DNA of 44,219 nt from the sequence record MK907227.1. The stretch is one strand, 5' to 3'. The notes under the pieces are model-generated. The model saw only the letters and a list, made by a program, of their open reading frames with translations. It searched no databases and was not told where the DNA came from. This stretch comes from Escherichia phage vB_EcoS-12210III. Position numbers and translations under genes: made by a program. Shown here piece after piece: positions 341 to 43,063 of this stretch. The stretch's first letter is position 1. Each line of letters starts with the position of its first letter.

Positions 341-371
341 TACCCTACCGAAACGAGATGAGGTTACAATA

Positions 372-815
372 ATGACTAAGTTTATTTGCACAGGAAGTTA
401 CACTGATTCAGTTTCTATTGGTCAGGTAGTATATGGCCTCGCCTCTGAAGATGGGGAGTTTATTATAACCAAAGACACCAACGATTGCCCTTCTAATGAT
501 GGTGAGCCAAAGTTTAAGGTTGGAGAACGAGTTCCATTAAATGGTATACTTTGGCAATGGAAAGAGGTTAAAGAGATGGATAAAGATCCAACATTTGACA
601 TGATGATGAGTCAGTGCAAGGCGAGAGCTGAGTCACTTCGATTCTCCCAATCAGAGCCAAAGCTCCAGGCCAACCACTTTGACGGCTACGCAACATTCAT
701 CATTGCCCAGGCGTGCGGGATGCGCGAAGAGCCACAGGTTCACACCATTCACTTAACCGAAGAGCAGGCCAGAGAGCTAGCATACGAAATTCTTGAGCAA
801 TTGAATAAGATTTAA
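372..815 (+). CDS. Hypothetical early protein (147 aa)
   Basis: ORF with RBS-like GAGG upstream; preceded by a conserved promoter unit; no recognisable domain. Confidence 0.6.
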   Translation: MTKFICTGSYTDSVSIGQVVYGLASEDGEFIITKDTNDCPSNDGEPKFKVGERVPLNGILWQWKEVKEMDKDPTFDMMMSQCKARAESLRFSQSEPKLQANHFDGYATFIIAQACGMREEPQVHTIHLTEEQARELAYEILEQLNKI

Positions 816-866
816 CGCGCCTAAAACGCATTCTAACGAACGATAATTTAAGCAAGGTGATTCATC

Positions 867-992
867 ATGGAAGCACAAGAAAGCCCAGCAGAGTGGTGCA
901 AGCGAATGCAGGACGAAGCTAAAACTAGCGAAGAGGTGATGGCTTACTACGAGCTTGCGCAAATTTGGATGCAACGGGAGGAGAAACAATGA
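867..992 (+). CDS. Small hypothetical protein (41 aa)
   Basis: ATG 867 preceded by AAGGTGA; ends TGA 990-992 overlapping the next ATG (ATGA). Confidence 0.3.
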   Translation: MEAQESPAEWCKRMQDEAKTSEEVMAYYELAQIWMQREEKQ

Positions 993-1132
993 GCTTCACT
1001 GAATACGTAATCGCATGTGAAAGACTGGTCTTTGATATGAAAACATTCAACCGGTTCATCATTAAGGATTTAATTAAGCCTTACAAACAAGGTGTGACGC
1101 CAGAGGCTTTTGTTAAGTCATTCTATAAATAG
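989..1132 (+). CDS. Small hypothetical protein (47 aa)
   Basis: ATG 989 overlapping the previous stop; stop TAG 1130-1132. Confidence 0.3.
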   Translation: MSFTEYVIACERLVFDMKTFNRFIIKDLIKPYKQGVTPEAFVKSFYK

Positions 1133-1172
1133 CACGAATTGCTCAACGCAGTCGCCATGGATGGCATATAAT
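1129..1172 (+). promoter_or_regulatory. Conserved phage promoter unit: palindrome ATAGCACGAATTGCTCA (1129-1145), 22-nt spacer, TATAAT (1167-1172)
   Basis: Same architecture as the other copies; implies that the TTG-initiated extension of the track ORF (1110) is not coding. Confidence 0.5.
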
Positions 1173-1205
1173 CACCATATCAACACAACTAGAGAGATAG
1201 AGAAA

Positions 1206-1409
1206 ATGAACAACAAATCAAATGAAGTGACCAAAGTTAAATCACATATCGCAGAAAATAATTATGATGAGTCTTTGGGTTTAGGTTTAGGTTTGAATTC
1301 AAGAAAAGTAGTTGTTAACGGAATCACGGGTTTTCATTCTCGCTGCGTTATAGCTAAACCAGTTATTGGTTTTGAGTCTCGCTGCGTCTTTGTTGGTGGA
1401 GTCTTATAA
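1206..1409 (+). CDS. Hypothetical protein (67 aa); start trimmed to ATG 1206 downstream of the promoter
   Basis: In frame with track ORF 1110..1409, whose 5' part overlaps the promoter palindrome; AGAGAGATAGAG precedes ATG 1206. Confidence 0.4.
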   Translation: MNNKSNEVTKVKSHIAENNYDESLGLGLGLNSRKVVVNGITGFHSRCVIAKPVIGFESRCVFVGGVL

Positions 1410-1648
1410 TGTTCGGATTATCAGAAGCACACTTCAACGCAGTTAAACGTCAGGCCGCAAAGTTGAACGAAGAGTACAGCAAGCTATCGCCAAAGCAGCG
1501 TAAGGACGATAAGCATGTTGCGACGTTGATTTCTAAGATGTGGGAGCCAGTTTTTACAATCATTAGTCGAGATCGCTTTGTTTGGACTAGTGGATATCTT
1601 AAGGGTCGTGTGGGTCATGACGAGAATGGGAATAGTCTTTATGAGTGA
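1409..1648 (+). CDS. Hypothetical protein (79 aa)
   Basis: ORF; start overlaps upstream stop (TAATG). Confidence 0.5.
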   Translation: MFGLSEAHFNAVKRQAAKLNEEYSKLSPKQRKDDKHVATLISKMWEPVFTIISRDRFVWTSGYLKGRVGHDENGNSLYE

Positions 1649-1922
1649 ATTTACTATCTGGTTTATCGCGGGACTGATTGCTTGGGGTTGCTTTTTAATC
1701 GTTTAGATGGAGGTTGTAAAAAAGAGCTTGCATCACTGACCGGAATTATCTAACATTAACCACGTAGGCAATCGAGCCATCCAAGATGGAACGGCGCACG
1801 GAGCGCAGCTAATAAGTCCGTTGCTCATTAGGTAGCGTATACGGCATTAAGACCTAGCGCAAATAGGCAGATTAACCGGCTGTATCAGGCAGCCCCGGAG
1901 CCGTAACCGGGACTCATTCAAG

Positions 1923-1997
1923 GCTCTGCTAGCTCAATAGGATAGTAGCAACGACCTTCTAAGTCGTAGGTTACTGGTTCGAATCCAGTGCGGAGCG
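1923..1997 (+). tRNA. tRNA-Arg, anticodon UCU (reads AGA); CCA encoded at 1998-2000
   Basis: Manual fold: acceptor GCTCTGC/GCGGAGC (one G-U pair), U8, D-arm with GG, anticodon stem ACGAC/GTCGT, loop CTTCTAA (U33, anticodon TCT), 5-nt variable loop, T-arm ACTGG-TTCGAAT-CCAGT, discriminator G. Confidence 0.7.
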
Positions 1998-2015
1998 CCA
2001 ATAAAGGAGTTCATT

Positions 2016-2198
2016 ATGTGGGATGTGAAGTTGTCCATTCGCTTAATGGGCCGCAGTTGCAAGAATTGCTCTCAAGATTACATCGCGTCAGTTGCCGCAA
2101 TCAGCGCTGAGGATGCGGTAGCGAAAGTAAAAGAGATGTCAGGTGCTGACCCTGACACTCACAAATTCCTTGTAGCTTACGTTCGTGAGCGAAAGTAA
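2016..2198 (+). CDS. Hypothetical protein (60 aa)
   Basis: ORF immediately after the tRNA with RBS AAAGGAG. Confidence 0.5.
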   Translation: MWDVKLSIRLMGRSCKNCSQDYIASVAAISAEDAVAKVKEMSGADPDTHKFLVAYVRERK

Positions 2199-2242
2199 AA
2201 AGTGTTATACCCTTGTAAAGTTTCGTTTCTCTCGTTGTTTTT

Positions 2243-2266
2243 AGCCCTCGCTTGAGGGCTTTTTTT
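2243..2266 (+). terminator. Intrinsic terminator (stem AGCCCTC/GAGGGCT, T-run), followed by a TATAAT at 2281-2286 upstream of the small terminase gene
   Basis: GC-rich hairpin plus T6 read from sequence. Confidence 0.6.
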
Positions 2267-2309
2267 CGTCTCCAATATGGTATAATCTGACCTCAACAAA
2301 GGAGGATTT

Positions 2310-2816
2310 ATGAGTAAAGCAGCACTAAAGATGGGTGAGGGAAATTTCAAGGCGCTATACAACAAGAAGTATGGCGATATTGCCATGGTGGCAATCAACC
2401 GCAAGTACACACCAGAGGAGGTCTTCAATTTCGCCGTTCGATACTTCTCCTGGGCAGAGAGTGAGGCAATTAAGGCAATTGAGACAGCAGCTTTCCAGGG
2501 CGTTGTTAGTGAAAACCTTGTACACAAGCCGCGCGTGTTCACATTAACCGGGTTGGCGCTCTTCATGGGTGTCAACATCAATAGATTCGCACGCTGGCGT
2601 ACTGAGGCTGGGTACTCTGATGTGATGGAATTTATTGATAACGTAATCTACGAGCAGAAGTATCAGCTTGGCGTTGCGGGTATCATCAACTCCACAATCG
2701 TTGGTAAAGAACTTGGCATTGATAAGCCGCAGGAGATTAAGATTAGCAACAACTCCACAGCTAACGACGTTGATAGTATGAAGGAGGCGCTGGAGTCCGT
2801 GATTAGCAAGTTATAA
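2310..2816 (+). CDS. Terminase small subunit (putative)
   Basis: 168-aa ORF with strong RBS (AAAGGAGG) immediately upstream of the large terminase gene; assignment mainly by position and size. Confidence 0.55.
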   Translation: MSKAALKMGEGNFKALYNKKYGDIAMVAINRKYTPEEVFNFAVRYFSWAESEAIKAIETAAFQGVVSENLVHKPRVFTLTGLALFMGVNINRFARWRTEAGYSDVMEFIDNVIYEQKYQLGVAGIINSTIVGKELGIDKPQEIKISNNSTANDVDSMKEALESVISKL

Positions 2817-2834
2817 CAATAAGAGGGTATAACA

Positions 2835-4409: not shown

Positions 4410-4421
4410 GCGTGATAAACT

Positions 4422-11779: not shown

Positions 11780-11823
11780 ATGGCACTTTTTGCTAAAGAG
11801 TTAATCCAATCTTCCTGTATAGT
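11780..11823 (+). promoter_or_regulatory. Conserved phage promoter unit inside the tail module: palindrome variant ATGGCACTTTTTGCTAA (11780-11796), 22-nt spacer, TATAGT (11818-11823), leader CATCGAAACGA (11829-11839)
   Basis: Same geometry as the early-region copies. Confidence 0.5.
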
Positions 11824-11856
11824 TAACTCATCGAAACGAAATGAGAGATTAATTAA

Positions 11857-12105
11857 ATGAATAACGTTAAAAACATCATCAAACTTACTGCGGTTCTGGT
11901 TGCTTTTTATGCGGTAGTTAAGATTGTTAACCCAACTGGCGAGACTTATGCCAATGCAAAGGCAAGCGAATATAACTTTGAGTTTGCTAAGGCCGAGCGA
12001 GTTTGCAAGGGTTTGGTAGGTGGTAAAGTTGACCAAATCATGAAATATGGTAGCGAGATTTGCAAGGATACCGCTGCTAAGATTGCAAAAGAAAACACTA
12101 AGTAA
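11857..12105 (+). CDS. Small exported/membrane protein (82 aa) inserted in the tail module (moron-like)
   Basis: Own promoter unit; N-terminal hydrophobic segment (IIKLTAVLVAFYAVVKIV); two Cys; interrupts the major tail to chaperone gene order. Confidence 0.5.
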   Translation: MNNVKNIIKLTAVLVAFYAVVKIVNPTGETYANAKASEYNFEFAKAERVCKGLVGGKVDQIMKYGSEICKDTAAKIAKENTK

Positions 12106-17734: not shown

Positions 17735-18287
17735 CATTAAGTTGGGCCTGTCACTAGGCCGCAGGTTTGGAAAGATTCACCAGATGGCGGTGAGTAGCGT
17801 GCCTGAAGCTATGCGGGCACTTTGCTCACAGATCCCTGCGTTCAAGGAGTTCATGAATAGCCATGTAGGTCAAAACACCAGATATGCTATTTTTGTGGAT
17901 GGTAAAAATGTGAACGAGCATCGAATAGCTGATTTTAGTGCCGTTCAGGAGATACGCATCTTACCAATCCCTCAAGGCCGTAAGTCTGGCGGGCTTTTTC
18001 AGACTATTTTAGGCGCCGCTCTTATCACGGTTGGCATCTTTACCGGGCAGATTTATCTTGTTGGCGCTGGTGTTTCTCTGGCTGCTGGCGGTATTGCCCA
18101 GCTACTTTCACCTCAAGCAACTGGATTAAAGACGCAGGACAACCAAACAAGCAACCGCGCCTCTTACGCATTTGGCTCAGCTGTAAACACTGTAGCCGCT
18201 GGTTATCCTGTTTGCCTACCTTATGGTTATCGAACGGTTGGCGGTTCGGTATTTAGTGCTGGCAGTTATTCCGAAGACATTGCTTAA
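17715..18287 (+). CDS. Tail assembly protein (lambda I-like)
   Basis: 190 aa with hydrophobic C-terminal half; overlaps the K-like gene end; position before the J-like gene. Confidence 0.55.
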   Translation: MTQKLIDIKLGLSLGRRFGKIHQMAVSSVPEAMRALCSQIPAFKEFMNSHVGQNTRYAIFVDGKNVNEHRIADFSAVQEIRILPIPQGRKSGGLFQTILGAALITVGIFTGQIYLVGAGVSLAAGGIAQLLSPQATGLKTQDNQTSNRASYAFGSAVNTVAAGYPVCLPYGYRTVGGSVFSAGSYSEDIA

Positions 18288-18295
18288 ACATCATA

Positions 18296-18316
18296 CCCGC
18301 CTAGTGCGGGTTTTTT
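18296..18316 (+). terminator. Terminator-like hairpin (CCCGC-CTAGT-GCGGG, T6) before the J-like gene
   Basis: Read from sequence. Confidence 0.5.
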
Positions 18317-18367
18317 ATTTAGTGTAGAATGGCACAAATGATCAAAACAAACATGAGGCTTTGTGAT

Positions 18368-22933: not shown

Positions 22934-22968
22934 TTTGTATTCCTTGGTAATTTCGTTTCGATGGAGTA

Positions 22969-23012
22969 ATAGTATCGCATCCTTGCGATCAGTGTTTAGC
23001 AATTAGTGCTAT
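22969..23012 (-). promoter_or_regulatory. Conserved phage promoter unit (minus): palindrome at 22996-23012, 22-nt spacer, -10 TACTAT (22969-22974), leader CATCGAAACGA
   Basis: Reverse complement matches the family consensus; overlaps the 3' end of the Rha-like gene. Confidence 0.5.
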
Positions 23013-24101: not shown

Positions 24102-24152
24102 CTTAAACAAAATTGCCATCCAAAAAGTAAAGTAAAAACCTCGCTCCCTGAG

Positions 24153-24196
24153 TTAATAAATGAAATTATCAGAATGTCTTTAGCAATTAGTGCTAT
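24153..24196 (-). promoter_or_regulatory. Conserved phage promoter unit (minus): palindrome 24180-24196, 22-nt spacer, -10 TATTAA (24153-24158)
   Basis: Reverse complement matches the family; drives the winged-helix regulator gene. Confidence 0.5.
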
Positions 24197-24388: not shown

Positions 24389-24549
24389 ACTTCTATAGAG
24401 TGTTCCGGTTATAATTTTAATATCATGTGGATTTATACAGTATTGCGCGACAGCTATACCAATGCACCATTAGCAATAAATGATATACACGATATACACG
24501 ATGGTTACATTGAGCTATGGCTGGGCTGAGATGCCAAGAAACGTAACTA

Positions 24550-26043: not shown

Positions 26044-26087
26044 ATAGCACGAATTGCTAAATAAAAAATTAAAAGGTGGAGTATGAT
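26044..26087 (+). promoter_or_regulatory. Conserved phage promoter unit: palindrome ATAGCACGAATTGCTAA (26044-26060), 22-nt spacer, TATGAT (26082-26087)
   Basis: Family member; overlaps the GTG-initiated extension of the track ORF. Confidence 0.5.
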
Positions 26088-26117
26088 TACCCCCATCAAC
26101 TACGAACGAGGTTAAAT

Positions 26118-29661: not shown

Positions 29662-29678
29662 ATAGCACTAATTGATAA
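29662..29678 (+). promoter_or_regulatory. Copy of the promoter palindrome (ATAGCACTAATTGATAA) with no matching -10 in either direction, between the primase terminator and the tailspike start
   Basis: Sequence identical to the palindrome of the primase promoter (30707-30723) but in plus orientation; 22 nt downstream is GGCATA. Confidence 0.4.
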
Positions 29679-29704
29679 GTTGGATTGTATCATCTTTCAG
29701 GCAT

Positions 29705-29725
29705 AAAAAAACCTCCCGAAGGAGG
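29705..29725 (-). terminator. Intrinsic terminator for minus-strand transcription (CCTCC-TTCG-GGAGG followed by T-run on the minus strand)
   Basis: Plus strand shows AAAAAAA-CCTCCCGAAGGAGG. Confidence 0.6.
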
Positions 29726-30658
29726 TTAGTCTAGTAATTCGCTTGCCTTGTATATGCGCTTTCTTATTCCTGACTTGAAAAAATTATCATCATTTGGCAT
29801 TACAACATCAAGATTGCGATCATCAGCAACGGCGAGTAAATCAAAATCGTGGCGAGTACAAGCCACTCTCAGCTTGTGGTTCCTAAGCGCATAAGCAACC
29901 ATCTCCATATTGTAGCTAGAGTGGCAAACAAGTACACAGCGGTTACCAGTAGCAAGATGAACACGAATACCATCAATCCAATTATCCACAAGATAAGCGT
30001 ACTCATCACTTTTAAAGGCACCAATAACAGCGACAGATTGGCGAGTGTAATCTTTTGCAGCATAACTAACATCTCCATCTTCATTTATAAACATTACATT
30101 GCACATTTCTTCCGATATGCCGTCACTATAAGCCATAAAACACGGTATTGCGTGTATTATTTCGCCTGATTTTGTTCTGCCAACATCAAAGCCAAACTCG
30201 CTATAGATACCCTCATATATGCTGAGTGGAGTTGATTCTACCCTCTCCGTCCTTTCCATTATCTCTAAGCATCTTTCATGGTCAATCTGAGCGCCCATTT
30301 TGTATGGTGATGTACGAGATGCTCTTTTGTTTGCTTTTGATATAACCTCTACTGGAACGAGATTTAGCCAATCACCAAGCGTATCTATTGTTTCACTATA
30401 ACTCATTCCGGAACACTTCATGACCCAACCAACACCAGAATCATTGCCGCACTGGTTGCATATTGCTGCTCCATTTCCCTTTTCTTGACCTAACTCATCA
30501 GTGAATCTAAACCTATCACGACCTCCACAATTCGGGCATGGCCCATGCTTCTTGCTAAGATTTTCTCTGGTCCATCCCAAATGAGACAAGTAGAACTCAC
30601 CCCACATCCCTTTCATTTTAGCTATCACTTCATTTTTGTCATGATAATTCATATACAC
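29726..30658 (-). CDS. DNA primase (zinc-ribbon plus TOPRIM-like)
   Basis: 310 aa; N-terminal CPNCGGRDRFRF zinc-ribbon motif and a second Cys pair (CNQCG); acidic motifs downstream. Confidence 0.65.
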   Translation of the reverse strand: MYMNYHDKNEVIAKMKGMWGEFYLSHLGWTRENLSKKHGPCPNCGGRDRFRFTDELGQEKGNGAAICNQCGNDSGVGWVMKCSGMSYSETIDTLGDWLNLVPVEVISKANKRASRTSPYKMGAQIDHERCLEIMERTERVESTPLSIYEGIYSEFGFDVGRTKSGEIIHAIPCFMAYSDGISEEMCNVMFINEDGDVSYAAKDYTRQSVAVIGAFKSDEYAYLVDNWIDGIRVHLATGNRCVLVCHSSYNMEMVAYALRNHKLRVACTRHDFDLLAVADDRNLDVVMPNDDNFFKSGIRKRIYKASELLD

Positions 30659-30678
30659 CCTCCATAAACAATAAAGGC

Positions 30679-30723
30679 ACTATACACAATGCATAGCGCC
30701 ACTGTTTATCAATTAGTGCTATT
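30679..30723 (-). promoter_or_regulatory. Conserved phage promoter unit (minus): palindrome 30707-30723, 22-nt spacer, -10 TATAGT (30679-30684)
   Basis: Family member upstream of the primase gene. Confidence 0.5.
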
Positions 30724-30727: not shown

Positions 30728-31201
30728 TTACTCTTTAGCTTTCCGTGCTGCTTCGTTAGCGGCCTTAATTTTGCGCCAGGACCGACACTCTGGCTTGGTG
30801 GCTAATTCAGCCTCGGTAACCACGCGAAGCATGTGGCGTTTTTTGCACCGAAGTGTCAGCGGCTTGCCGTTGCCGTCGAATTGCAAGTCTGGTCGGCAGA
30901 ATGTTGCGCGAAAACCTTCTCCATTTCGCTTATAGTAGTTGTGCGAAAGCTGAGCACCACGCGCCGACATCATGCCGCGCTTAAACCATTCTTCTACAGC
31001 CTGTGGTGTTACCTTTAATTGCTTTGCCATATTTGCCTTTGTGCCGAAGAAATCAAGAACAATTTCCAGCCGCGCACGTAAACCCGCTCTTACTTCATCT
31101 TTTAAAACGTAGTAACCTGAAGGTCGTTTTCGCTGCTTTTTATCTTCAGTGCGGATGGTTCCGTTATTGCCGTTAATGGTTCGCTTGTCTACTGCATTCA
31201 T
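30728..31201 (-). CDS. HTH DNA-binding protein (Cro/CI-like, putative regulator)
   Basis: 157 aa; HTH-like segment KANMAKQLKVTPQAVEEWFKRG; basic N-terminus; divergent from the helicase gene. Confidence 0.5.
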   Translation of the reverse strand: MNAVDKRTINGNNGTIRTEDKKQRKRPSGYYVLKDEVRAGLRARLEIVLDFFGTKANMAKQLKVTPQAVEEWFKRGMMSARGAQLSHNYYKRNGEGFRATFCRPDLQFDGNGKPLTLRCKKRHMLRVVTEAELATKPECRSWRKIKAANEAARKAKE

Positions 31202-31302
31202 TTCATTACCTCAATAGCATTTTTTGTTAAAAGTCATACTGATTTGATGGTATTATTGTACTCAATTAAACGCTACAAGACAATTTTTATAGGAATTTAG
31301 AT

Positions 31303-33297
31303 ATGTTGCCTATCGAGAAGCTGGTTGCAAACTTCGATAAAGAAAGAATCAAGCAGATTCAGAAAGATTACCAGTTTGGCGAGATAACCCCTTACGAATT
31401 CCAGTGCGTTACATTTGACGCAATTGGGAAGGCTATTGGCAAGTATGAGGCGCCATTTATCGCAGACCTTTCCGTATCGGCTGGTAAGACAATCATTCTC
31501 GCTATGATTGGTAAGCGTATGGAGCAGCTTGGTCTTCCTTATATGGTGCTTTCTCGCCAGTCAGAGATAATCAGCCAGAACTCAGAAGAGCTTCGCAATC
31601 TTGGCATCCGTAATAGCGTCTATTGCGCCGGGCTTAACGTTAAATCAGTTTATTACCCAACCATAGTTGCCAGTGAGGGCACGGCAGCTAACGGCTTATT
31701 TAAGGGGCTTGGTGACTATGTTCCGGCTGTTATCGCAATCGATGAGTGTCACATGGTCGATCACATGGATATCGTGGAAGCCGAAGAGAATGAAGAAACA
31801 TTTGAGCAAATGAGCACAAAGAAAGGCGAGATGGTTTTTAAGGATGGCGTTAATACTGGATTGCTTGGTACTGGTCGTGCGCAGTACACGCTAATAATCA
31901 CTGAGATGAAGCGTCGCTGCCGTGAAAAATACGGGCGGGAGCTTCGTATATTCGGCCTTACTGGTAGCCCTTATCGAAACAATGATCATATCGTCGTTAG
32001 CAATCCAAATATCCGTGGGTTCTGGCGAAAAACTGTGATTCAGGTTCCAACAAATTACCTTGTTGATTTGGGATTCGTGGTTCCTACTGTTTATGGCGAG
32101 GTTGGCGATTTGGGTTATGACCTTAGCGAGTTTGTTCCAGACGGTAGTGATGGCGTGAAAGACTTTAGCAGAAAAGAAATGGATGCAATGGCCGCAAAGA
32201 TTCACGACAACCAAACCATGACACAAAAGATAATGCAGTTTGTCGTCAAAATACTGGAGACTCGCAACGCCGCATTGGTCACCTGCGCTGGAAAACTCCA
32301 TTGTGATGAGGCTGCTGCGGCATTGCCGGATGGATACCCTTACGCCATTATCACCGATTCTACCGGAGAGAGGAGGCGCAGAGAGATTCTTGCAGATTGC
32401 CAGACTGGAAAGTACAAGATTATCTTTCAGATTGGATGTCTAACCACGGGCGTAAACCAACCGCTGTGGGATACTAGCGTCATACTACGCAAGATTGGCA
32501 GTCTAACCTTAATGATTCAGCTTCTTGGTCGTGGCATGCGAAAACTAAAAAAGGCGCACATAGATGCTGGGTTCAAGAAGGAGGACCACTTGGTATTAGA
32601 CTTTGCCGGAGCGCTTGATGACATGGCAGAGCTTTACTTTGACCCAATAATTGAGGAGATTCAGGCTGAGAAGTTTAAATCCTCAAGAAAAGGTGGTGAT
32701 GAGGTTCGCCAGTGTCCGCAATGTGGATATGAGAACTCGCCATTTGCTAGACGCTGTAGCAATAAGATTAATGGCGTTAGATGCGATCACTTTTTCCAGT
32801 TCACAACATGTGATGATATTACCGACCAACAAACAAAGGCGGTAATCAAGAAAGGTTGTGGAACTAAAAATGACATAGCAGCAAAAGTTTGTCGTGAATG
32901 CGGAGAAATGCTTAAAGACCCAAACGCTAACCTGACTGGAAAGATGTATCGTCGCGGAGACTATTTGCGGGTTTATGATTTTCAAGTTGGTTTAAGCAAG
33001 AATCAAACGGGCATTGTAGTTAAGTACAATATCATGGCCCACAACGGAGAAAGATTTAACGCTTGGGAGTTCTTCAATCCAGAATCTGACCATAGGGTTT
33101 GTAGTGTGCTTTGGAAAAACTTTTGCCTTGCTCACATTGAAAATCGCGCTGAAGCAGCACGAATTGGCAGACTGAAGAATGCAAGAATGATTATGACTAA
33201 CGCAGATAAGTTTCGTGCGCCAGTCCAGGTGACACACCGCAAGAATGGCAAAGGAAAGGATATAATAGCTTTTAAGAATTTTGGAGAATTGTTATGA
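31303..33297 (+). CDS. Superfamily-2 DNA helicase with C-terminal zinc-ribbon region
   Basis: 664 aa; Walker A (SVSAGKT), DEAH-like motif (IDECH), C-terminal Cys clusters (CPQCG...C...C; CRECG). Confidence 0.75.
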   Translation: MLPIEKLVANFDKERIKQIQKDYQFGEITPYEFQCVTFDAIGKAIGKYEAPFIADLSVSAGKTIILAMIGKRMEQLGLPYMVLSRQSEIISQNSEELRNLGIRNSVYCAGLNVKSVYYPTIVASEGTAANGLFKGLGDYVPAVIAIDECHMVDHMDIVEAEENEETFEQMSTKKGEMVFKDGVNTGLLGTGRAQYTLIITEMKRRCREKYGRELRIFGLTGSPYRNNDHIVVSNPNIRGFWRKTVIQVPTNYLVDLGFVVPTVYGEVGDLGYDLSEFVPDGSDGVKDFSRKEMDAMAAKIHDNQTMTQKIMQFVVKILETRNAALVTCAGKLHCDEAAAALPDGYPYAIITDSTGERRRREILADCQTGKYKIIFQIGCLTTGVNQPLWDTSVILRKIGSLTLMIQLLGRGMRKLKKAHIDAGFKKEDHLVLDFAGALDDMAELYFDPIIEEIQAEKFKSSRKGGDEVRQCPQCGYENSPFARRCSNKINGVRCDHFFQFTTCDDITDQQTKAVIKKGCGTKNDIAAKVCRECGEMLKDPNANLTGKMYRRGDYLRVYDFQVGLSKNQTGIVVKYNIMAHNGERFNAWEFFNPESDHRVCSVLWKNFCLAHIENRAEAARIGRLKNARMIMTNADKFRAPVQVTHRKNGKGKDIIAFKNFGELL

Positions 33298-33713
33298 ACA
33301 TTACAGACAAATTTGATTACATTGAGTTTTACTCTGGACCGGTTAAGTCGTGTCCGAAAGAGGATGACGAACAAATCTTTTGCTCTGATTGGGTTAAGTA
33401 TAACTATCCAGAGATGGTATTTTTCCACTGCGTGAATGAGGGCAAAAAAACCATTGGTCAAGCAAGAAAGGACCAGGCTAAAGGGCTTCTCAAAGGCGTA
33501 TCAGACTGTATGTTTCTTATTCCCGAATCTATCAGAGGAAAGTACCCTTTCGGAGCCATAGAGCTAAAGAGGGCAGGAAAAACCCAGGCTAGTCCAGTCA
33601 GTAACGAGCAGAAGTCCTTCCTTAAAAGCGTAAGAGAGTCAGGCGGCTTCGCTGCCGTGGCGTACGGTCGCGAGGGTTTTCTTGCTGCATTTAGAGAAAT
33701 GATTTCAAAATAG
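33294..33713 (+). CDS. VRR-NUC-like nuclease (putative)
   Basis: 139 aa; C-terminal region with D...ELK-type motif (GAIELKRAG) and overall VRR-NUC-like pattern; ATGA overlap with the helicase gene. Confidence 0.45.
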   Translation: MNITDKFDYIEFYSGPVKSCPKEDDEQIFCSDWVKYNYPEMVFFHCVNEGKKTIGQARKDQAKGLLKGVSDCMFLIPESIRGKYPFGAIELKRAGKTQASPVSNEQKSFLKSVRESGGFAAVAYGREGFLAAFREMISK

Positions 33714-33753
33714 CACTAATTGCTAAAGATGAATCGGTGGGGTGGTGTATTAT
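33710..33753 (+). promoter_or_regulatory. Conserved phage promoter unit: palindrome ATAGCACTAATTGCTAA (33710-33726), 22-nt spacer, TATTAT (33748-33753), leader CATCGAAACGA
   Basis: Family member. Confidence 0.5.
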
Positions 33754-33789
33754 CACCTCATCGAAACGAAACGAAGAGAGAGAAACAAA

Positions 33790-34911: not shown

Positions 34912-36042
34912 ATGGCAACTGCAAAAATTACCAACGAAGAACTGCGCGAAGAGCTGGCTAATGGCATGACAAACAAGGCAATCGCAGAGAAGTACGGAAT
35001 GAACATTCGCAACGTTGAATTGCGTCGTAGTAAATTAGCTAAGCAAGGTGAGGGGCATGGCCGTGATGTTAGCAACCTAATTCCTCAAGGTTACGCTGTC
35101 AAAGGTGTGTCTAGCTTAATTGGTGCCGACGGTGAGATTAAGCAACAGTGGGTTAAATCTGACATCGACAAAGAGAAGCAAGAAGAAATGATGCTTCAGG
35201 CAATTCAGGCCCTAACTGATGAGTTGCCACGCGAGAAACCAAAGCCGCTCAGTAAGTCATCATTTGAGGATACCTTAAGCCTGTACCCCGTATTCGACTT
35301 ACACATTGGCGCAATGGCTCACCATGCCGAGTGTGGTGAGAACTACAGCACTGAAATTGCAGAGCGCATTCTTAATAGCTACTTTGATTACGCGGTTGCA
35401 AAGGCTCCTAACTCAAAGAAGGCTGTATTGCTGATTGGTGGTGACTTCCTTCACTCTGACGGAATGGAAGCGGTAACTCCAACGAGTCGTCATATTCTTG
35501 ACCAAGATAGCCGTTATCACAAATTGGTTTACGTAGCAGTACGAGCAACCCGCAGAGCAATTAGCCGGATGCTTGATAAGCACGCTGAGATTGAGGTTCA
35601 GATTATCCCTGGAAACCACGACCTCTCAGGTATGATTTGGCTTCGTGCTGCAATGGCGGCGTTCTATATGGATGAGCCTCGAGTTAATGTTGACGCATCT
35701 CCTGCAGCGCTTCACGTAACGCAGTTTGGAAAGACGCTGCTTGGTTACTGTCATGGACATGAACTCAAAAAGCCTGATACCAGACTATCAACACTGGCTC
35801 GTGACCATCGTAAGGCTTTTGGTGAGTCTGAGTATGTTTACACTCATAGTGGCCATTACCACCATCAAACGATTACAGAGGGTAACTTAGGTATCGATGA
35901 GTCTCATGGTCAGCTTGGTTGCAAGGATGCGTACAGTGCCAACGGTGGTTATCGCTCTTATCGCCAGGCGTCGGTAATCATCTACAGCCCTAAATTCGGA
36001 GAGATTGGTCGATTCACTTGCCGTCCCGAAATGTTTAGTTAA
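34912..36042 (+). CDS. Metallophosphoesterase (calcineurin-like) with N-terminal HTH-like segment
   Basis: Motifs DLH, GGDFLH, GNHD, GH, GHYHH in the canonical order; N-terminal TNKAIAEKYGMNIRNVELRR is HTH-like. Confidence 0.6.
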   Translation: MATAKITNEELREELANGMTNKAIAEKYGMNIRNVELRRSKLAKQGEGHGRDVSNLIPQGYAVKGVSSLIGADGEIKQQWVKSDIDKEKQEEMMLQAIQALTDELPREKPKPLSKSSFEDTLSLYPVFDLHIGAMAHHAECGENYSTEIAERILNSYFDYAVAKAPNSKKAVLLIGGDFLHSDGMEAVTPTSRHILDQDSRYHKLVYVAVRATRRAISRMLDKHAEIEVQIIPGNHDLSGMIWLRAAMAAFYMDEPRVNVDASPAALHVTQFGKTLLGYCHGHELKKPDTRLSTLARDHRKAFGESEYVYTHSGHYHHQTITEGNLGIDESHGQLGCKDAYSANGGYRSYRQASVIIYSPKFGEIGRFTCRPEMFS

Positions 36043-36085
36043 TAGCACTTTTTGCCTAAGTAATGCCGTAGAAATGCGGCATAAT
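36042..36085 (+). promoter_or_regulatory. Conserved phage promoter unit: palindrome ATAGCACTTTTTGCCTA (36042-36058), 22-nt spacer, CATAAT (36080-36085), leader CATCGAAACGA
   Basis: Family member. Confidence 0.5.
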
Positions 36086-36126
36086 CACCACATCGAAACG
36101 AGATGAGCTAAACAAGGAAGCACAAA

Positions 36127-37607: not shown

Positions 37608-37637
37608 TTTAAAATCCTCTTTGTTTTCTATGAAGTA

Positions 37638-37681
37638 ACTATGCTCTTTTTGTTTTTCTTTTATTTAGCAATTTGTGCTAT
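37638..37681 (-). promoter_or_regulatory. Conserved phage promoter unit (minus): palindrome 37665-37681, 22-nt spacer, -10 CATAGT (37638-37643)
   Basis: Family member. Confidence 0.45.
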
Positions 37682-37758: not shown

Positions 37759-37795
37759 TTTGTTTTCCTTTCCTGTCTATCGTTTCGATGAATTA

Positions 37796-37839
37796 ATAAT
37801 AACAAAAGCCCACAAGGGGCTTTTAACAAAAAGTGCTAT
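37796..37839 (-). promoter_or_regulatory. Conserved phage promoter unit (minus): palindrome variant 37823-37839, 22-nt spacer, -10 TATTAT (37796-37801), leader CATCGAAACGA; overlaps a terminator hairpin (37805-37822)
   Basis: Family member with the first half-site degenerated (TTAACAA). Confidence 0.4.
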
Positions 37840-38175: not shown

Positions 38176-38178
38176 TCA

Positions 38179-39762: not shown

Positions 39763-39792
39763 TACTTGTCTCCGTATTGTTTCTGAGCGGCC

Positions 39793-39836
39793 ATTATATC
39801 AACGACCGCTTATAATTCATTGTCAATTTGTGCTTA
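39793..39836 (-). promoter_or_regulatory. Conserved phage promoter unit (minus): palindrome variant 39820-39836 (hexamer TTGACA), 22-nt spacer, -10 TATAAT (39793-39798)
   Basis: Family member upstream of the NTPase gene. Confidence 0.5.
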
Positions 39837-40351: not shown

Positions 40352-40377
40352 TTCTTATCTCCCGTTTCGATGTAAAG

Positions 40378-40421
40378 ATAATACCGCATCCTTGCGATTT
40401 CGTTTTAGCAATTCGTGCTAT
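40378..40421 (-). promoter_or_regulatory. Conserved phage promoter unit (minus): palindrome 40405-40421, 22-nt spacer, -10 TATTAT (40378-40383), leader CATCGAAACGG
   Basis: Family member. Confidence 0.5.
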
Positions 40422-40569
40422 TTCGTGCTTTTTCTATCGCCTTGAGCATAATCTCGTGAGAATCCAGTAGGTCCTCATTAAACCAGTCACCGCAAGGCCA
40501 ACCCTTGCCGCTGTAGGCACTTATGACCTCAAGATCGAAATAATTTATCTCAGATGGTAATAGCATCAT
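40405..40569 (-). CDS. Small hypothetical protein (54 aa)
   Basis: ATG overlapping the upstream stop; 3' end overlaps the promoter palindrome. Confidence 0.3.
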   Translation of the reverse strand: MMLLPSEINYFDLEVISAYSGKGWPCGDWFNEDLLDSHEIMLKAIEKARNSTNC

Positions 40570-40805
40570 TTCACCTCGTCAAAAGTTGCAATTCCAGGGA
40601 TAAACATCACAACATTCCAGCCTGCAATGGCAATCCAGCCAGAATCGTTCTTGTGCGGTCGCTCAGCGCCATTAATCAACCACTCGTTCGGGATTGCCTT
40701 GCCGTTAATGATTAGTGGCTCAGCGTTGTATACAGAGCCCTTTACGAACGGTGTCAAAATCTTCTTGTCCGTGCTGGTGATACAGTTAGTGCAGCGAATT
40801 TTCAT
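40566..40805 (-). CDS. Hypothetical protein (79 aa)
   Basis: ORF from the track. Confidence 0.45.
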   Translation of the reverse strand: MKIRCTNCITSTDKKILTPFVKGSVYNAEPLIINGKAIPNEWLINGAERPHKNDSGWIAIAGWNVVMFIPGIATFDEVK

Positions 40806-40815
40806 ATCTCAATCT

Positions 40816-40995
40816 TCAAATAAATGGTAAACATTCAACGCATCCAAGTCCATCACAGCACAGGAATTCATCCTCTGACTGGAATTGCTTAGCCAAGTTA
40901 ATGTCCAACTTTCCGCGCAACACAAGGTCTGTGTAATCTTCGTTAAGCCCAATCAGTGCGCATTCGTTACGAAGTTCATCTTTATCAATCTTCAT
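40816..40995 (-). CDS. Small Cys-containing hypothetical protein (59 aa)
   Basis: ATG 40995 with RBS GAGGAG downstream of a promoter unit; C-terminal CCDGLGCVEC. Confidence 0.35.
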   Translation of the reverse strand: MKIDKDELRNECALIGLNEDYTDLVLRGKLDINLAKQFQSEDEFLCCDGLGCVECLPFI

Positions 40996-41022
40996 TTCTA
41001 TCTCCTCGTTTTTGATGAGCTA

Positions 41023-41067
41023 ACTATAGCCTCGCTAACTCATAATGTCTTTAGCAAAAAGCGCTAT
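41023..41067 (-). promoter_or_regulatory. Conserved phage promoter unit (minus): palindrome variant 41051-41067, 23-nt spacer, -10 TATAGT (41023-41028)
   Basis: Family member. Confidence 0.45.
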
Positions 41068-41354
41068 TCGTCAGATTTATGCATTGTTGCAGATATTGCA
41101 ATGATTCACATGATTATTGCACATACAGCAATATTGCTTCTGATGCAATGATGTTTTTGATTGTTGCGAAAAGTGAAATGAAGTGGTGGGTGAGTGAATG
41201 AAAGATGGATTGACTACCATACAAGTTGATTTTCATTCTTGGTGAGCCATTCTTGAGATATACGAGTAACCATCGTATACCAAGTGTCGTCACAAAAGTT
41301 AGTTACCACTAACCTACGTTTTTTACGCGAGATATACGCACGATATACAATATA

Positions 41355-41425
41355 ATATCTATATATATCAACCTTTTACTTTATTATTATTATTATTATT
41401 ATATATATGTATACTGTGTATACCG
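41355..41425. repeat. AT-rich ~70-bp repeat, copy B (with (TTA)6 microsatellite), inside a 540-bp non-coding AT-rich region
   Basis: Matches copy A at 24319-24388. Confidence 0.8.
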
Positions 41426-41699
41426 ATAATTGATTGGATAATTGATATGTTCCGCGCAGATATTCTGACACTTGTCAGAATGGGATGACATTGTAGGAAT
41501 AAAAAGGCGCATATATAGGAAAGCACTCCCAAAAACGGTACACAGGGGATACGGCACGTTTACAACCAGTGCTGACGCTGCCTTGGAGGCCGAAAAAACG
41601 TATCCGCGATGGAATAGACATAAAAATACGTTGACCGACACGTAAACAAGTGGCAAGATGGCAATCACTGAAACGAAGTAAACGAAACGAGGTATCAAC

Positions 41700-42248
41700 A
41701 TGCAGAAAGTAACACTTGGCGAAGTTATCCGTGAGATGGTGCGTAACGCAATGGCGTCTGAGAACGGCGAGTTCAAAGTTCCGGTAAGCCAGATATTCAA
41801 ACTTGTTCGCGGCAAGCCATATCCAGAAATGGAGTATGACGAAGAGACTGACGAGATCCTAAACCTGGCAGACAGGGCGATGCCTGAACTCAAGAACTCG
41901 TACATCTACAATACCGTGTCGCGAATGACTGAACTACGAGACGCCAACAAGCGAGCGCGCTACAAGTTCATCTGGATTGACGATGAAGGCGAGCAAACCA
42001 GGCCGGGTAATTTCGACGGCGATGGTGCTGATAAATACCTGGTAATTTATATTGAGAACGGCTCTCACTGGACTGGCAATCGTGAGAAGAAGAAGCAGGA
42101 AGCAGAGAAAGAGGTCGCCATCATTGAAAGGTTCAAGGCTCGGTTACTCAAGATCACACCTAACGTTATCGACCTGCAAGGCGAGCAGAAAGAGGGCGCT
42201 CTCATTGCCCTGGCCCGTTACTATGAAATGATTAAGGAGACTAACTGA
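41700..42248 (+). CDS. Hypothetical protein (182 aa)
   Basis: ORF from the track; leader contains AAACGAAACGAG. Confidence 0.55.
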   Translation: MQKVTLGEVIREMVRNAMASENGEFKVPVSQIFKLVRGKPYPEMEYDEETDEILNLADRAMPELKNSYIYNTVSRMTELRDANKRARYKFIWIDDEGEQTRPGNFDGDGADKYLVIYIENGSHWTGNREKKKQEAEKEVAIIERFKARLLKITPNVIDLQGEQKEGALIALARYYEMIKETN

Positions 42249-42670
42249 TGTTTAATTTCGATGAAGAGAAACTGACGGACGAGCAGATTATGAATATTGC
42301 TATCCAAGATGGGCTGCCACCGCTACTGGTTGCAATCAATGCTAACGGGTATCGACAAACGCAAGGCTTCTGGGGTCATCCCGATGCGTCAGAAGTATAC
42401 AAAGATGAAGCGCTTGGCGTTCTGATTAATATTATTAGGAAAATGGCAAAGAACGGCAAGGGCGTGCTTGGTATCAGGTCTTTATACGAAGGCGCTCGCA
42501 GGGCGAAAAGAATTAAGGGTGGCAATGACAGGCTAATGGCGCGCATTAAGGATGAGTTTATCCCAGCCCTAGAGAGTATGAATCTAGCTTGCCTCATTGG
42601 AGATAAGATTTATGTTCATCCGGCAATCCTCGAGGAGAGCTGGGAGCCTAACTTCAAAGTATACGAATGA
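42248..42670 (+). CDS. Mini-paralog of the DUF3987-like NTPase termini (140 aa; lacks the ATPase core)
   Basis: N-terminus MFNFDEEKLTDEQIMNIA...LPPLLVAINANGYRQTQGFW matches the NTPase N-terminus; C-terminus KNGKGVLGIRSLYEGAR...CLIGDKIYVHP matches the NTPase C-terminus. Confidence 0.6.
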   Translation: MFNFDEEKLTDEQIMNIAIQDGLPPLLVAINANGYRQTQGFWGHPDASEVYKDEALGVLINIIRKMAKNGKGVLGIRSLYEGARRAKRIKGGNDRLMARIKDEFIPALESMNLACLIGDKIYVHPAILEESWEPNFKVYE

Positions 42671-42777
42671 GAGCATCCTAGTAGACTACCATACCACTTC
42701 CGGTACAGTGATGAGGAGGTGAAGGCGGGGATTGAGTTCTACTGGAAAGCGAAAGCTCTCCTGAACGGTGAATATTA

Positions 42778-42993
42778 ATGCTTATAAAATGTGTGTATGT
42801 AAGGCAAGCCAATCACCACAACCTTTCAGTTGTAAATGGCGGGATATACGTGGCTAAGCCGATACCTTGTTTTAATGGCTCATACTACATCAAGGTTGAT
42901 GGTAATGGGTACATAGTTAAGACGATAGGTGAATCCCTTATGATAAAAAGCCTTGGCGTCATAATGGCTAAGTTCGAAATAGTTCGCAAATAG
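42778..42993 (+). CDS. Hypothetical protein (71 aa)
   Basis: ORF from the track. Confidence 0.4.
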   Translation: MLIKCVYVRQANHHNLSVVNGGIYVAKPIPCFNGSYYIKVDGNGYIVKTIGESLMIKSLGVIMAKFEIVRK

Positions 42994-43033
42994 CACGAAT
43001 TGCTAAACAATGGATCGGGTAGTCAGCTATGAT
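42990..43033 (+). promoter_or_regulatory. Conserved phage promoter unit: palindrome ATAGCACGAATTGCTAA (42990-43006), 22-nt spacer, TATGAT (43028-43033), leader CATCGAAAACAAAGAGG
   Basis: Family member. Confidence 0.5.
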
Positions 43034-43063
43034 TACCCCATCGAAAACAAAGAGGAAATGAAT

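Follow-up and report, generated by a model that had tools for sequence, protein, structure and literature searches.

The window analysed here is the complete 44,219-bp genome of an Rtp/T1-like phage (Veterinaerplatzvirus, Drexlerviridae). It contains 18 copies of a cassette of about 60 bp, Table 1, composed of a 21-nt box aaATAGCACnnnTTGnTAAAA, a variable 20-nt spacer that usually contains one arm of a hairpin, a -10 hexamer, mostly of the extended TGn type, at predicted positions -12 to -7, a C-rich discriminator of 5 nt, and finally C(-1)A(+1)TCGAAACGA. The conserved box aaATAGCACnnnTTGnTAAAAc is located at -52 to -31 relative to the predicted start, and holds a palindrome, TAGCA-N5-TGCTA, whose centre is at -42. 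No usable -35 was found in the cassettes. As the searchable literature yielded no 5'-end data for T1-like phages, +1 is a predicted position throughout.

Table 1. Cassettes and copies of the start motif in the window. Start sites (+1) are predicted.
Feature	Positions	Strand	Box	-10	Start motif or region	Remarks
Cassette, degenerate motif	297-356	+	297-314	TATAGT 335-340	TACCGAAACGA 346-356	+1 at 347; gene start 372; wrap-type hairpin GGGGTAATT/AGTTACCCT, -11.8 kcal/mol
Cassette without motif	1129-1188	+	1129-1146	TATAAT 1167-1172	TATCAACACAA	
One-mismatch copy of CATCGAAACGA	1699-1709	-				not in any cassette; probably chance
Cassette, exact motif	11780-11839	+	11780-11797	TATAGT 11818-11823	CATCGAAACGA 11829-11839	+1 at 11830; gene start 11857
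Cassette, exact motif	22953-23012	-	22995-23012	TACTAT 22969-22974	CATCGAAACGA 22953-22963	+1 at 22962; start codon 22933 (Rtp45/cor-like lipoprotein position)
Box with poor -10, without motif	24137-24196	-	24179-24196	TATTAA		
Cassette, start region shifted and diverged	26044-26103	+	26044-26061	TATGAT 26082-26087	CCATCAACTACGAACGAGG	
Box-only copy	29662-29727	+	29662-29679	none		terminator-like hairpin 29710-29727; antisense to flanking primase and tail-fibre genes; same arrangement in T1 and Rtp
Cassette without motif	30663-30722	-	30705-30722	TATAGT 30679-30684	T-rich	-10 within terminator-like hairpin 30676-30700; drives primase gene
Cassette without motif	31214-31272	+	31214-31231	TATTAT 31251-31256		spacing 1 shorter; helicase gene start 31303
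Cassette, exact motif	33710-33769	+	33710-33727	TATTAT 33748-33753	CATCGAAACGA 33759-33769	+1 at 33760; start codon 33790; hairpin -18.8 kcal/mol, extends into CATCG
Cassette, exact motif	36042-36101	+	36042-36059	CATAAT 36080-36085	CATCGAAACGA 36091-36101	+1 at 36092
Cassette, loose motif	37622-37681	-	37664-37681	CATAGT 37638-37643	CATAGAAAACA 37622-37632	
Cassette, exact motif	37780-37839	-	37822-37839	TATTAT 37796-37801	CATCGAAACGA 37780-37790	terminator-like spacer hairpin 37803-37825; +1 at 37789
Cassette, one-mismatch motif	40362-40421	-	40404-40421	TATTAT 40378-40383	CATCGAAACGG 40362-40372	spacer hairpin 40383-40398
Cassette, degenerate motif	41007-41067	-	41050-41067	TATAGT 41023-41028	CATCAAAAACG 41007-41017	spacing 1 longer
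Cassette, two-mismatch motif	42990-43049	+	42990-43007	TATGAT 43028-43033	CATCGAAAACA 43039-43049	wrap-type hairpin, -16.1 kcal/mol
Cassette without motif	43496-43555	+	43496-43513	TGgTATAAT	CACCAACCACG	
Cassette without motif	43949-44008	+	43949-43966	TGtTATAGT	CACACAAAGCG	

The 3' end of the cassette is the motif CATCGAAACGA, which occurs in the window in five exact and two one-mismatch copies. These seven copies compare with 0.65 +/- 0.82 expected, and seven are reached in 0 of 100 shuffles, i.e. the conserved leader element claimed in a first-pass annotation is real and highly non-random. Ten of the 18 cassettes carry the motif (5 exact, 1 one-mismatch, 2 two-mismatch and 2 looser), in agreement with the "about half" proposed there. 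The copies it listed exist, but the one placed at 349-359 lies at 346-356, a register shift of 3 nt, the other coordinates deviate by 0-3 nt, and the loose copy at 37622-37632 was missing. The location after the -10, at the predicted 5' end of the mRNA and ahead of a purine-rich ribosome binding site, fits the sequence. The distance from the -10, given as 4-8 nt, is in fact constant: 5 nt separate the hexamer from the motif's C. In a wider set of 1,057,476 bases (~1.06 Mb) of Drexlerviridae DNA we found 78 exact copies versus 0.5 expected, and all 78 follow a box on the same strand, at 49-50 nt from its start.

Base frequencies were calculated from 517 unique cassettes, 354 of which had not been used for seeding the search. 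G(-14) has a frequency of 0.78, and A at position 2 and T at position 6 of the -10 hexamer both reach 0.87. The best-conserved portion of the motif is C(-1)A(+1), with 0.68 and 0.79. The consensus from +1 to +12 is ATCGAAACGAAA (6.2 bits), and the motif is the consensus for -1 to +10 across the whole family; the 354 non-seed cassettes show the same picture, 5.35 bits versus 0.87 in a control stretch. The motif is purine-rich and has no T beyond +2. In the cassette set the T frequency is 0.10 over +3 to +19 versus 0.23 farther downstream; at the single positions from +3 to +12 it is 0.04-0.10 nearly throughout, with 0.21 at +3.

Among the five exact cassettes of the window the spacers are only 27-35% identical and the 11 nt past the motif 38%; these cassettes do not originate from a recent duplication. 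In pairwise comparisons within 20 orthologous groups of cassettes the motif differs by 0.058 (C-1 0.02, A+1 0.00), the discriminator by 0.157 and the spacer by 0.16-0.18, showing that the motif is under purifying selection. Exact 11-mers are also kept in paralogous cassettes whose flanks have randomised. This persistence is tighter than a purely physical optimum for promoter escape requires, which hints at sequence-specific recognition.

Most cassettes contain a co-varying, strand-specific hairpin around the -10. The mean folding energy is -9.2 kcal/mol for the sense strand, -7.1 for the antisense strand and -4.1 for shuffled sequences, and the mismatches are 52 G.T versus 5 A.C. In the wrap layout the 3' arm finishes at -1 or +3, so that the motif starts at the foot of the stem. 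The element of the first-pass annotation is one end of a larger cassette, which also comprises this hairpin and the 21-nt Drexlerviridae repeat.

Promoters that depend on an activator, such as class II CRP/FNR promoters and those of the Mu Mor/C type, have no -35 and a dyad near -42. The cassettes resemble them in the position of the box palindrome, the fixed -10 spacing and the lack of a -35. The box arms match the E. coli Lrp consensus yAGhAwATTwTdCTr, which makes Lrp a candidate binder. In the Rtp genome paper of 2006 Wietzorrek reportedly proposed that the regulator Rtp52 has its site in the inverted repeat. The 21-nt sequence has been published as an intergenic direct repeat of phage TLS, also present in T1, Rtp and Rogue1, with its function left open (PMC11447400). 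It is the box of every cassette, which agrees with it in consensus, in orientation relative to transcription and in the distance of about 76 nt to the start codon. The published description covers the 21-mer only; it mentions neither the -10 hexamer that follows after a constant 20 nt, nor the start motif, nor the hairpin (PMC11447400). The TLS authors found just three canonical promoters (PMC11447400), and in the window a generic -35/-10 scan likewise gives no excess, 35 versus 30 expected, making the cassettes the obvious missing promoters.

Our best explanation, with a probability of roughly 0.6, is that CATCGAAACGA comprises the transcription start, C(-1)A(+1), and the initial ten bases transcribed from a repeated promoter cassette for host sigma-70. 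The analysis establishes how the cassette is built, that its spacing is fixed, that the motif is tied exclusively to the box, that the consensus holds across the family and that the motif is under purifying selection. Most likely the motif is a part of the promoter and not a separate RNA control site. This is the best supported of the functions offered earlier because the motif is locked to the -10 while its distance to the start codon varies between 10 and 25 nt, because the C(-1)A(+1) pair is most conserved, because the avoidance of T matches published fast-escape initial transcribed sequences, and because the motif resembles two mapped starts of phage T7.

That the first ~10 bases control escape, and so form part of the promoter, is known from T5 N25 and from libraries of initial transcribed sequences (PMC5961368, PMC12464699). 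In a screen of 262,144 variants, slow escape was linked to T's, and to TG, within the initial ~7 nt, and fast escape to high RNA/DNA stability and stacking (PMC5961368). The motif, T-free from +3 and purine-rich, fits these rules. However, the library studies found no single conserved optimum, whereas in the Drexlerviridae cassettes one 11-mer is the modal class of the family. Against an escape function counts that T at +2 slowed lacUV5 escape (PMC5961368). Against the promoter reading also count the exact 11-mers kept between randomised flanks, the bimodal mismatch distances, with 118 of 517 cassettes at most one mismatch from the motif and the bulk at 4-5, and the half of the cassettes, including most of those in T1, that dispense with the exact motif.

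For the major T7 early promoters A1 and A3, used by E. coli RNA polymerase, the starts have been mapped experimentally to nt 498 and 750 of V01146. A1 starts gcc/ATCGAGAGGG (CC/ATCGA) and A3 cac/ATGAAACGACAG (C/ATGAAACGA), compared with ccc/ATCGAAACGAAA in the cassettes. All share C(-1), A(+1), T(+2) and then a T-free purine-rich run. Unlike the cassettes, A1 and A3 have good -35 hexamers and long leaders, and lack the upstream box and the hairpin; the likeness spans 5-7 bases and could be convergence. Sigma-70-dependent promoter-proximal pause elements (lambda PR' AACGAT, Q loading) are likewise conserved phage initial transcribed sequences, and the exact motif cassette at 37780-37790 contains AACGAT. 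However, a -10-like pause hexamer requires a final T, and since T is scarce from +3 to +12 such an element is avoided in the cassettes, not conserved.

It is possible, though we consider it unlikely, that a phage or host factor recognises, at the RNA level, the ten nucleotides with which the mRNA begins (AUCGAAACGA). Such a factor could repress or activate translation, cut the RNA as an endoribonuclease or protect it from 5'-end-dependent decay, and it would mark or co-regulate this group of messages. The exact 11-mers between randomised flanks would fit such a tag, the bimodal distances suggest a discrete class, the motif is at the extreme predicted 5' end of an unstructured, U-poor leader, and small accessory genes mostly follow motif-bearing cassettes. 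However, the distance to the Shine-Dalgarno sequence and ATG is not fixed, the motif by itself forms no stable structure (only 3 bp from UCG/CGA), and no RNA-binding candidate was found among the scanned proteins. Complementarity to 16S rRNA is a single 7-mer, at chance level, and there is no Rfam match. Further, the T7 A1 and A3 transcripts start alike although their 5' ends are far upstream, ~430 and ~180 nt, of the first gene, 0.3, which starts at nt 925. The RNA-binding regulator, endonuclease site and translational operator of the first-pass annotation are not supported and are less likely, given the missing structure, the loose distance to the ribosome binding site and the lack of a candidate factor; its interpretation is partly supported overall.

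We find it improbable that the promoter-embedded hairpin and the single-stranded motif act jointly in RNA read through from the upstream gene, as a pause, processing or 3'-end-stabilising signal or as a nut-like site at which an antitermination factor loads. The hairpin is stable, co-varying and stronger on the sense strand, the wrap layout places the motif at the stem foot, and T1-like late regions have many internal terminators. However, the geometry is not fixed: the hairpin has its 3' end anywhere from position 30 to 61 in the 66 cassettes with an exact motif, 13 of which fold only weakly, and in the window cassettes at 23012, 36042, 37839 and 40421 the hairpin stops before the -10. Neither a U tract after the hairpin nor a -10-like or consensus pause element was found in the cassettes.

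The box and motif might also be alike mainly by recombination between cassettes, as a linker that shuffles small gene cassettes and in which the motif has no function; a similar role has been proposed for the PeSL elements of T4-like phages (PMC4122927). The cassettes and the PeSLs are both repeated intergenic units of an early promoter plus a hairpin, ahead of small variable genes and at points of indels or exchange. However, PeSLs have a canonical -35/N17/-10 promoter and a separate stem-loop (PMC4122927), whereas the cassettes have no -35, a family-specific box at -42 and a -10 often enclosed by the hairpin. Twelve of 44 break points in homology between the window and Rtp are at most 30 nt from a cassette (~2 expected), rtp71 of Rtp is inserted precisely between motif and next ATG, and RecE-like and Erf-like recombination proteins are among the gene products of the phage. 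Still, break points are expected at gene boundaries in any case, a stretch of 11 bp offers very little length for homologous exchange, gene conversion would also homogenise the spacer and discriminator, which are at random-level identity, and within orthologues the motif is more constrained than its immediate neighbours. We regard this as improbable. Least probable of all is a DNA operator for late shut-off, in which a phage repressor binds the near-palindrome TCG-AAA-CGA (+2 to +10): the overlap with +1 is a classical operator position, the 3+3 inverted repeat is lengthened to ATCGAAACGAT at 37780-37790 and at least one phage gene product is a helix-turn-helix protein, but the arms are just 3 bp, their spacing is altered in the common variant CATCGACAACG, and at position 61, where a T would lengthen the palindrome, T is rare (0.04).

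As part of the promoter, the motif would act at initiation. The cassette would be read by the host sigma-70 RNA polymerase, with the motif fixing the start at a pyrimidine-purine step 7 nt past the -10 and ATP as the first nucleotide. The purine-rich, T-free initial transcript may then cause fewer initiation pauses and less abortive release, and the polymerase would thereby leave a promoter without a -35 quickly, giving each such mRNA an unstructured, U-poor 5' leader as a by-product. T1-like phages would use these cassettes chiefly for early genes, replication genes and small accessory genes.

The genome is a complete one of an Rtp/T1-like siphovirus (Drexlerviridae, Braunvirinae, Veterinaerplatzvirus), and its deposited annotation calls nearly every gene product a 'hypothetical protein'. 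The 11-mer CATCGAAACGA, which the first-pass annotation had described as a recurring leader element, is indeed repeated in the window. Five exact copies and two with one mismatch were found, i.e. 7 matches against 0.65 expected, and none of 100 shuffles reaches 7. The looser copies that had been listed also exist, with coordinates that were 0-3 nt off; the one placed at 349-359 is located at 346-356 and reads TACCGAAACGA. Chance and base composition are ruled out as the source of the copies by these counts and by those in 1.06 Mb of family DNA, where 78 exact copies are found with 0.5 expected. All 78 are on the same strand as a box, the conserved upstream part of the repeated unit, and 49-50 nt after it.

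All copies of the motif in the window, except the one at 1699-1709 (minus strand), close a repeated unit on its 3' side, and the spacing within this unit is fixed. In order, the unit consists of a ATAGCACNNNTTGCTAAA box, a spacer of 20 nt, a -10-like hexamer (TATAGT, TATTAT, TATAAT and alike), a discriminator of 5 nt and CATCGAAACGA. The box has 19 matches in the window, with 1.95 expected; the match at 24469-24486 looks like a chance one, leaving 18 units; the motif, or a variant of it that can still be recognised, is present in ten. The one-mismatch copy at 1699-1709 was rejected as an antisense partner, as it is isolated and its frequency is that of chance. It is found in a stretch (1650-2000, plus strand) with about 270 nt of non-coding DNA upstream of tRNA-Arg(tct) (1923-2000), together with a promoter-like TTGCAT-N17-TAACAT near 1719-1747.

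Positions of the exact motif copies, of the hairpins in the cassettes and of the insertion next to a motif.
Feature	Coordinates	Strand	Source
Exact CATCGAAACGA	11829-11839	+	window scan
Exact CATCGAAACGA	33759-33769	+	window scan
Exact CATCGAAACGA	36091-36101	+	window scan
Exact CATCGAAACGA	22953-22963	-	window scan
Exact CATCGAAACGA	37780-37790	-	window scan
Cassette hairpin	323-348	+	folding
Cassette hairpin	33735-33763	+	folding
Cassette hairpin	43014-43044	+	folding
Terminator-like spacer hairpin	30676-30700	-	terminator scan
Terminator-like spacer hairpin	37803-37825	-	terminator scan
Terminator-like spacer hairpin	40383-40398	-	terminator scan
rtp71 insertion	window 40352-40363; Rtp (L003) 44714-44908		window-Rtp comparison

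The upstream half of the cassette has been published before, as a repeat for which there was no explanation. The box is the Drexlerviridae 21-nt direct repeat aaATAGCACnnnTTGnTAAAA, which is intergenic, is oriented with transcription, lies about 76 nt 5' of the start codon, and has 23 copies in T1, 20 in Rtp and 18 in the window. This repeat is known from a description of phage TLS, with T1, Rtp and Rogue1 noted as further carriers; the TLS authors reported only three sigma-70-like promoters and left open what the repeat does (PMC11447400). In the literature searched (the T1 and Rtp genome papers lay outside the search) we found no published description of the sequence 3' of the box and no transcript mapping in Drexlerviridae.

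Scanning IMG/VR with the box and the -10 gave matches only on contigs of 7-53 kb, mostly of 40-53 kb, which is the range of T1-like genomes. The IMG/VR loci, T1, Rtp and the window together provided 517 unique units, numbered here from the A of ATAGCAC as position 1. In the resulting profile, the box covers positions 0-20, the hexamer positions 39-44 (A 0.87 at its position 2, T 0.87 at its position 6) and a C-rich stretch positions 45-50. The start follows with C at position 50 (0.68) and A at position 51 (0.79), and the consensus of positions 51-62, ATCGAAACGAAA, contains 6.2 bits. The 354 units outside the search seed give the same profile, with A 0.82 and T 0.81 in the hexamer and 5.35 bits at positions 50-62 against 0.87 in a control stretch, and the profile is therefore not an artefact of seeding or ascertainment. 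In both sets G is frequent at position 37 (-14; 0.78-0.79) and is preceded by T (-15) at 0.41-0.45; among the window cassettes, only about half have the G at -14.

According to the profile, the unit is built like an extended -10 sigma-70 promoter whose predicted start is position 51. In the window the predicted +1 falls on the A of CATCG, at 11830, 33760 and 36092 on the plus strand and at 22962, 37789 and 40371 on the minus strand. The C(-1)A(+1) step sits 7 nt after the hexamer and agrees, at the level of sequence, with the 6-8 nt window in which sigma-70 promoters start on a purine. None of the cassettes has a canonical -35 at 16-18 bp from the -10; instead TTGCTA is found 22 bp upstream of the hexamer, and this is too distant for a -35 role. 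A generic -35/-10 scan of the window, which called 35 sites with 30 expected, did not call the cassettes. TGCTAAAAC (box positions 12-20; 33721-33729 in the window, for example) is an extended -10 but for its last base, and was rejected as a real one because the final T is missing. The rarity of T at position 20 (0.03 of the 517 units) suggests that a second start, about 24 nt upstream, is selected against.

From -1 to +10 the family consensus is CATCGAAACGA. This sequence is also the modal class, exact at the canonical position in 66 of 517 units (72 if a shift of 1 nt is allowed), and the next commonest variants are CATCGACAACG (24) and CAACGAAACGA (12). The motif is also under purifying selection, as seen in 20 orthologous groups defined by the similarity of the downstream coding sequence. 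Within these groups, the motif differs pairwise by 0.058 (0.02 at C-1 and 0.00 at A+1), the discriminator next to it by 0.157, the spacer by 0.16-0.18, the -10 by 0.082 and the box by 0.038. Recent block duplication is ruled out by the flanks of the motif, which are at random-level identity: the five exact units of the window share 27-35% of the spacer and 38% of the 11 nt after the motif, so the 11-mer is not a duplication remnant.

The gap between the motif and the -10 is fixed at 5 nt, while that between the motif and the start codon is 10-25 nt, which argues against an operator tied to the ribosome binding site and for an element anchored at the start point. T has a frequency of 0.10 between +3 and about +19, compared with 0.23 further downstream; among the 517 units it is 0.04-0.10 nearly everywhere between +3 and +12, with 0.21 at +3, and the consensus initial transcript of the family contains no TG. 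In three cassettes (357-374, 11840-11859 and 36102-36110, plus strand) the motif is followed directly by (A/G)ATGAG, opening mini-ORFs of 2-4 codons: MRLQ, with a stop codon that overlaps the true ATG at 372, MRD, which ends just 5' of the ATG at 11857, and MS. These are probably just the AT+GAGG context of a Shine-Dalgarno sequence.

We propose, with a probability of about 0.6, that the motif is the start site and initial transcribed sequence (ITS) of a promoter cassette read by the host polymerase. Among the options offered in the first-pass annotation, this is the one that made the element part of the promoter itself, and it has the best support. The motif would fix the start through its pyrimidine-purine step 7 nt past the -10, with initiation by ATP, and the T-free, purine-rich initial transcript would allow the polymerase to leave a -35-less promoter efficiently. 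When all 262,144 variants of the +2 to +10 stretch were screened, ITSs with slow escape had two or three T's within the first ~7 bases, often as TG, fast-escaping ones had more stable RNA/DNA hybrids and stronger stacking, and the authors argued that the ITS should be counted within the promoter (PMC5961368). The T depletion of the motif and its missing TG are in line with these published correlates of escape.

Similar starts are found in the T7 early promoters, for which experimentally mapped starts are annotated: A1 begins with ATCGAGAGGG after gcc and has CCATCGA in common with the family consensus, and A3 begins with ATGAAACGACAG after cac and has GAAACGA in common with it. Taking nt 925 as the start of T7 gene 0.3, the A1 and A3 starts lie ~430 and 180 nt upstream of the first gene, and so the resemblance is easier to explain by initiation than by a function in translation or in the leader. 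A C-rich discriminator with an A start is also reminiscent of the kinetics of rRNA-type promoters. On this reading, the motif is a family-specific new example of a conserved ITS in strong phage promoters read by the host polymerase. A sigma-70-dependent pause element of the lambda PR' type was rejected; it needs a -10-like hexamer (A at position 2, T at position 6) within the first ~10 transcribed bases, and T is avoided from +3.

A second reading, which we regard as unlikely, is that the motif is recognised at the 5' end of the mRNA as a tag or an operator. The tight modal class and the bimodal distance distribution in the 517 units speak for a tag, but no structural, positional or protein feature points to it. 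Three more specific RNA candidates were discarded. For a structured operator of the boxB/MS2 type only a 3-bp UCG/CGA stem is possible (the control stretch 54-86 folds at -1.6 kcal/mol), the mini-hairpin UCG-AAA-CGA is too weak and a common variant alters its loop, and pairing to 16S rRNA is limited to a single 7-mer (nt 960-966), at chance level. An Rfam scan of the window gave no match at the motif, only the tRNA-Arg and a sub-threshold Trp operon leader, both elsewhere. The latter (18233-18319, plus strand; 29.4 bits, where the gathering score is 41; E = 0.046) sits just 5' of a 1136-aa tail-fibre gene and is likely a terminator-like hairpin.

Most cassettes themselves contain a stable hairpin, between the box and +1. 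Positions 21-53 have a mean folding energy of -9.2 kcal/mol in the sense and -7.1 in the antisense direction, compared with -4.1 for shuffled sequences and -1.6 to -3.5 for control regions, and 62% of the units reach -8 kcal/mol or lower, against 1.5% of the shuffles. In the commonest layout the hairpin wraps the -10: the 5' arm at 27-35 is followed by a TGnTAT loop, enclosing TGn and the first half of the -10, and by a 3' arm at 42-50, formed by the second half of the -10 and the discriminator and ending at -1. A perfect stem of at least 5 bp between a unit's own spacer and discriminator is found in 37% of the units, against 7.6 +/- 1.1% with shuffled partners; the arms form 162 distinct pairs, the units being partly related and the events not independent. 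In a fixed register, pairing and co-variation in 101 units lie above all 500 shuffles and all slid registers. Internal arm mismatches, with related units included, are G.T in 52 cases and A.C in 5, and this excess, together with the energy gap between the strands, points to a structure on the sense strand, which would most simply form in read-through RNA. In other units the hairpin lies in the spacer and precedes a T-rich -10, an arrangement that the scanner calls terminator-like in three window units. The wrap-type hairpins are directly followed by ATCGAAACGA, without the T run of an intrinsic terminator. The hairpin may act as an insulator or stabiliser between cistrons or, alternatively, as a partial terminator. 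Cassette hairpins are also present in T1 and Rtp units.

It is conceivable, though quite improbable, that the whole unit is also read as RNA, as a recognition module that marks, processes, stabilises or antiterminates messages. Such a module would consist of the co-varying, sense-specific hairpin, whose loop UGnUAU is conserved, and of single-stranded AUCGAAACGA behind it; it would be placed at the 5' ends of primary transcripts and within read-through transcripts, and be used by a phage or host factor. If true, the unit would represent a nut-like or 'self-tag' system with ~20 copies per genome. A signal in the read-through RNA, in which the motif acts together with the hairpin, is more doubtful still, as a fixed hairpin-to-motif geometry was looked for among the units and not found.

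At the DNA level, conservation of the motif through recombination of cassettes is very improbable. When the window is compared with Rtp, 12 of 44 HSP ends lie within 30 nt of a cassette, against ~2 expected, although gene boundaries are break points anyway, and in Rtp the insertion of the gene rtp71 falls precisely into the gap that separates CATCGAAACGA from the following start codon. However, conversion would homogenise the neighbouring positions too, and these differ. As module junctions the cassettes recall the promoter/stem-loop (PeSL) elements of T4-like phages, likewise repeated intergenic promoters with a hairpin, but the promoter type differs (PMC4122927). The least probable alternative is a DNA operator at +1, as the arm spacing varies among the variants.

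The palindrome of the box, TAGCA-N5-TGCTA, is centred at -42. Both its 5-bp arms and their spacing match the E. coli Lrp consensus yAGhAwATTwTdCTr, with 11-13 of 15 positions fitting, which makes the box a candidate Lrp site by consensus fit. Among the phage proteins, one of 157 aa (30728-31201, minus strand) weakly matches a P22-Cro-type helix-turn-helix. We take Rtp52 to be its homologue, and the Rtp genome paper reportedly proposed that Rtp52 binds ten inverted repeats located 5' of Rtp genes. Binding of the box by the Rtp52 homologue would fit a class II-type activator at -42. At 30728-31303, the Cro-like gene (minus strand) and a helicase gene (plus strand) diverge from a 100-bp region with a box at 31214-31231 and a sigma-70-like promoter at 31283-31255 on the minus strand. 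The box would lie 3' of this minus-strand start, a layout that hints at autoregulation of the candidate helix-turn-helix gene.

Two other readings of the box were rejected. As an RNA hairpin, its single-side changes give mismatches about as frequently as wobbles, except C/T at position 14; as a sigma-54 promoter, TAGCAC-N3-TTGC is 2 bp too short compared with TGGCAC-N5-TTGC and has AG for GG. One box without a -10 (29662-29727, plus strand) sits where a tail-fibre gene has its 5' end, in antisense orientation to the primase gene, and has a bidirectional terminator-like hairpin on its 3' side. It has counterparts in T1 (L002, 34902-34919) and Rtp (L003, 33762-33779), so that the arrangement is kept across three genera; its role may be purely that of a protein-binding site, or it may act as an antisense promoter.

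The structural region, 2.3-21.7 kb, contains a single box cassette (11780). At 2236-2310 (plus strand), adjoining the small terminase gene on its 5' side, there is a terminator, AGCCCTCgcttGAGGGC with a T run; after it come an extended -10 that lacks a box, TGgTATAAT (2273-2281), and then a CAACAAAGGAGG leader. This -10 is a candidate late promoter of another class.

T1-like phages count among the commonest coliphages and are notorious for contaminating fermentations. The fixed-spaced, usually TGn-extended -10, the C-rich discriminator and the T7-A1/A3-like start turn the repeat into a testable promoter model, giving a predicted +1 for ~18 transcription units of the window. The cassettes could yield compact, strong, -35-independent promoter parts. 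The motif is a natural case of one ITS kept by selection across a virus family, and it bears on the argument for including the first ~10 transcribed bases in the definition of the promoter.
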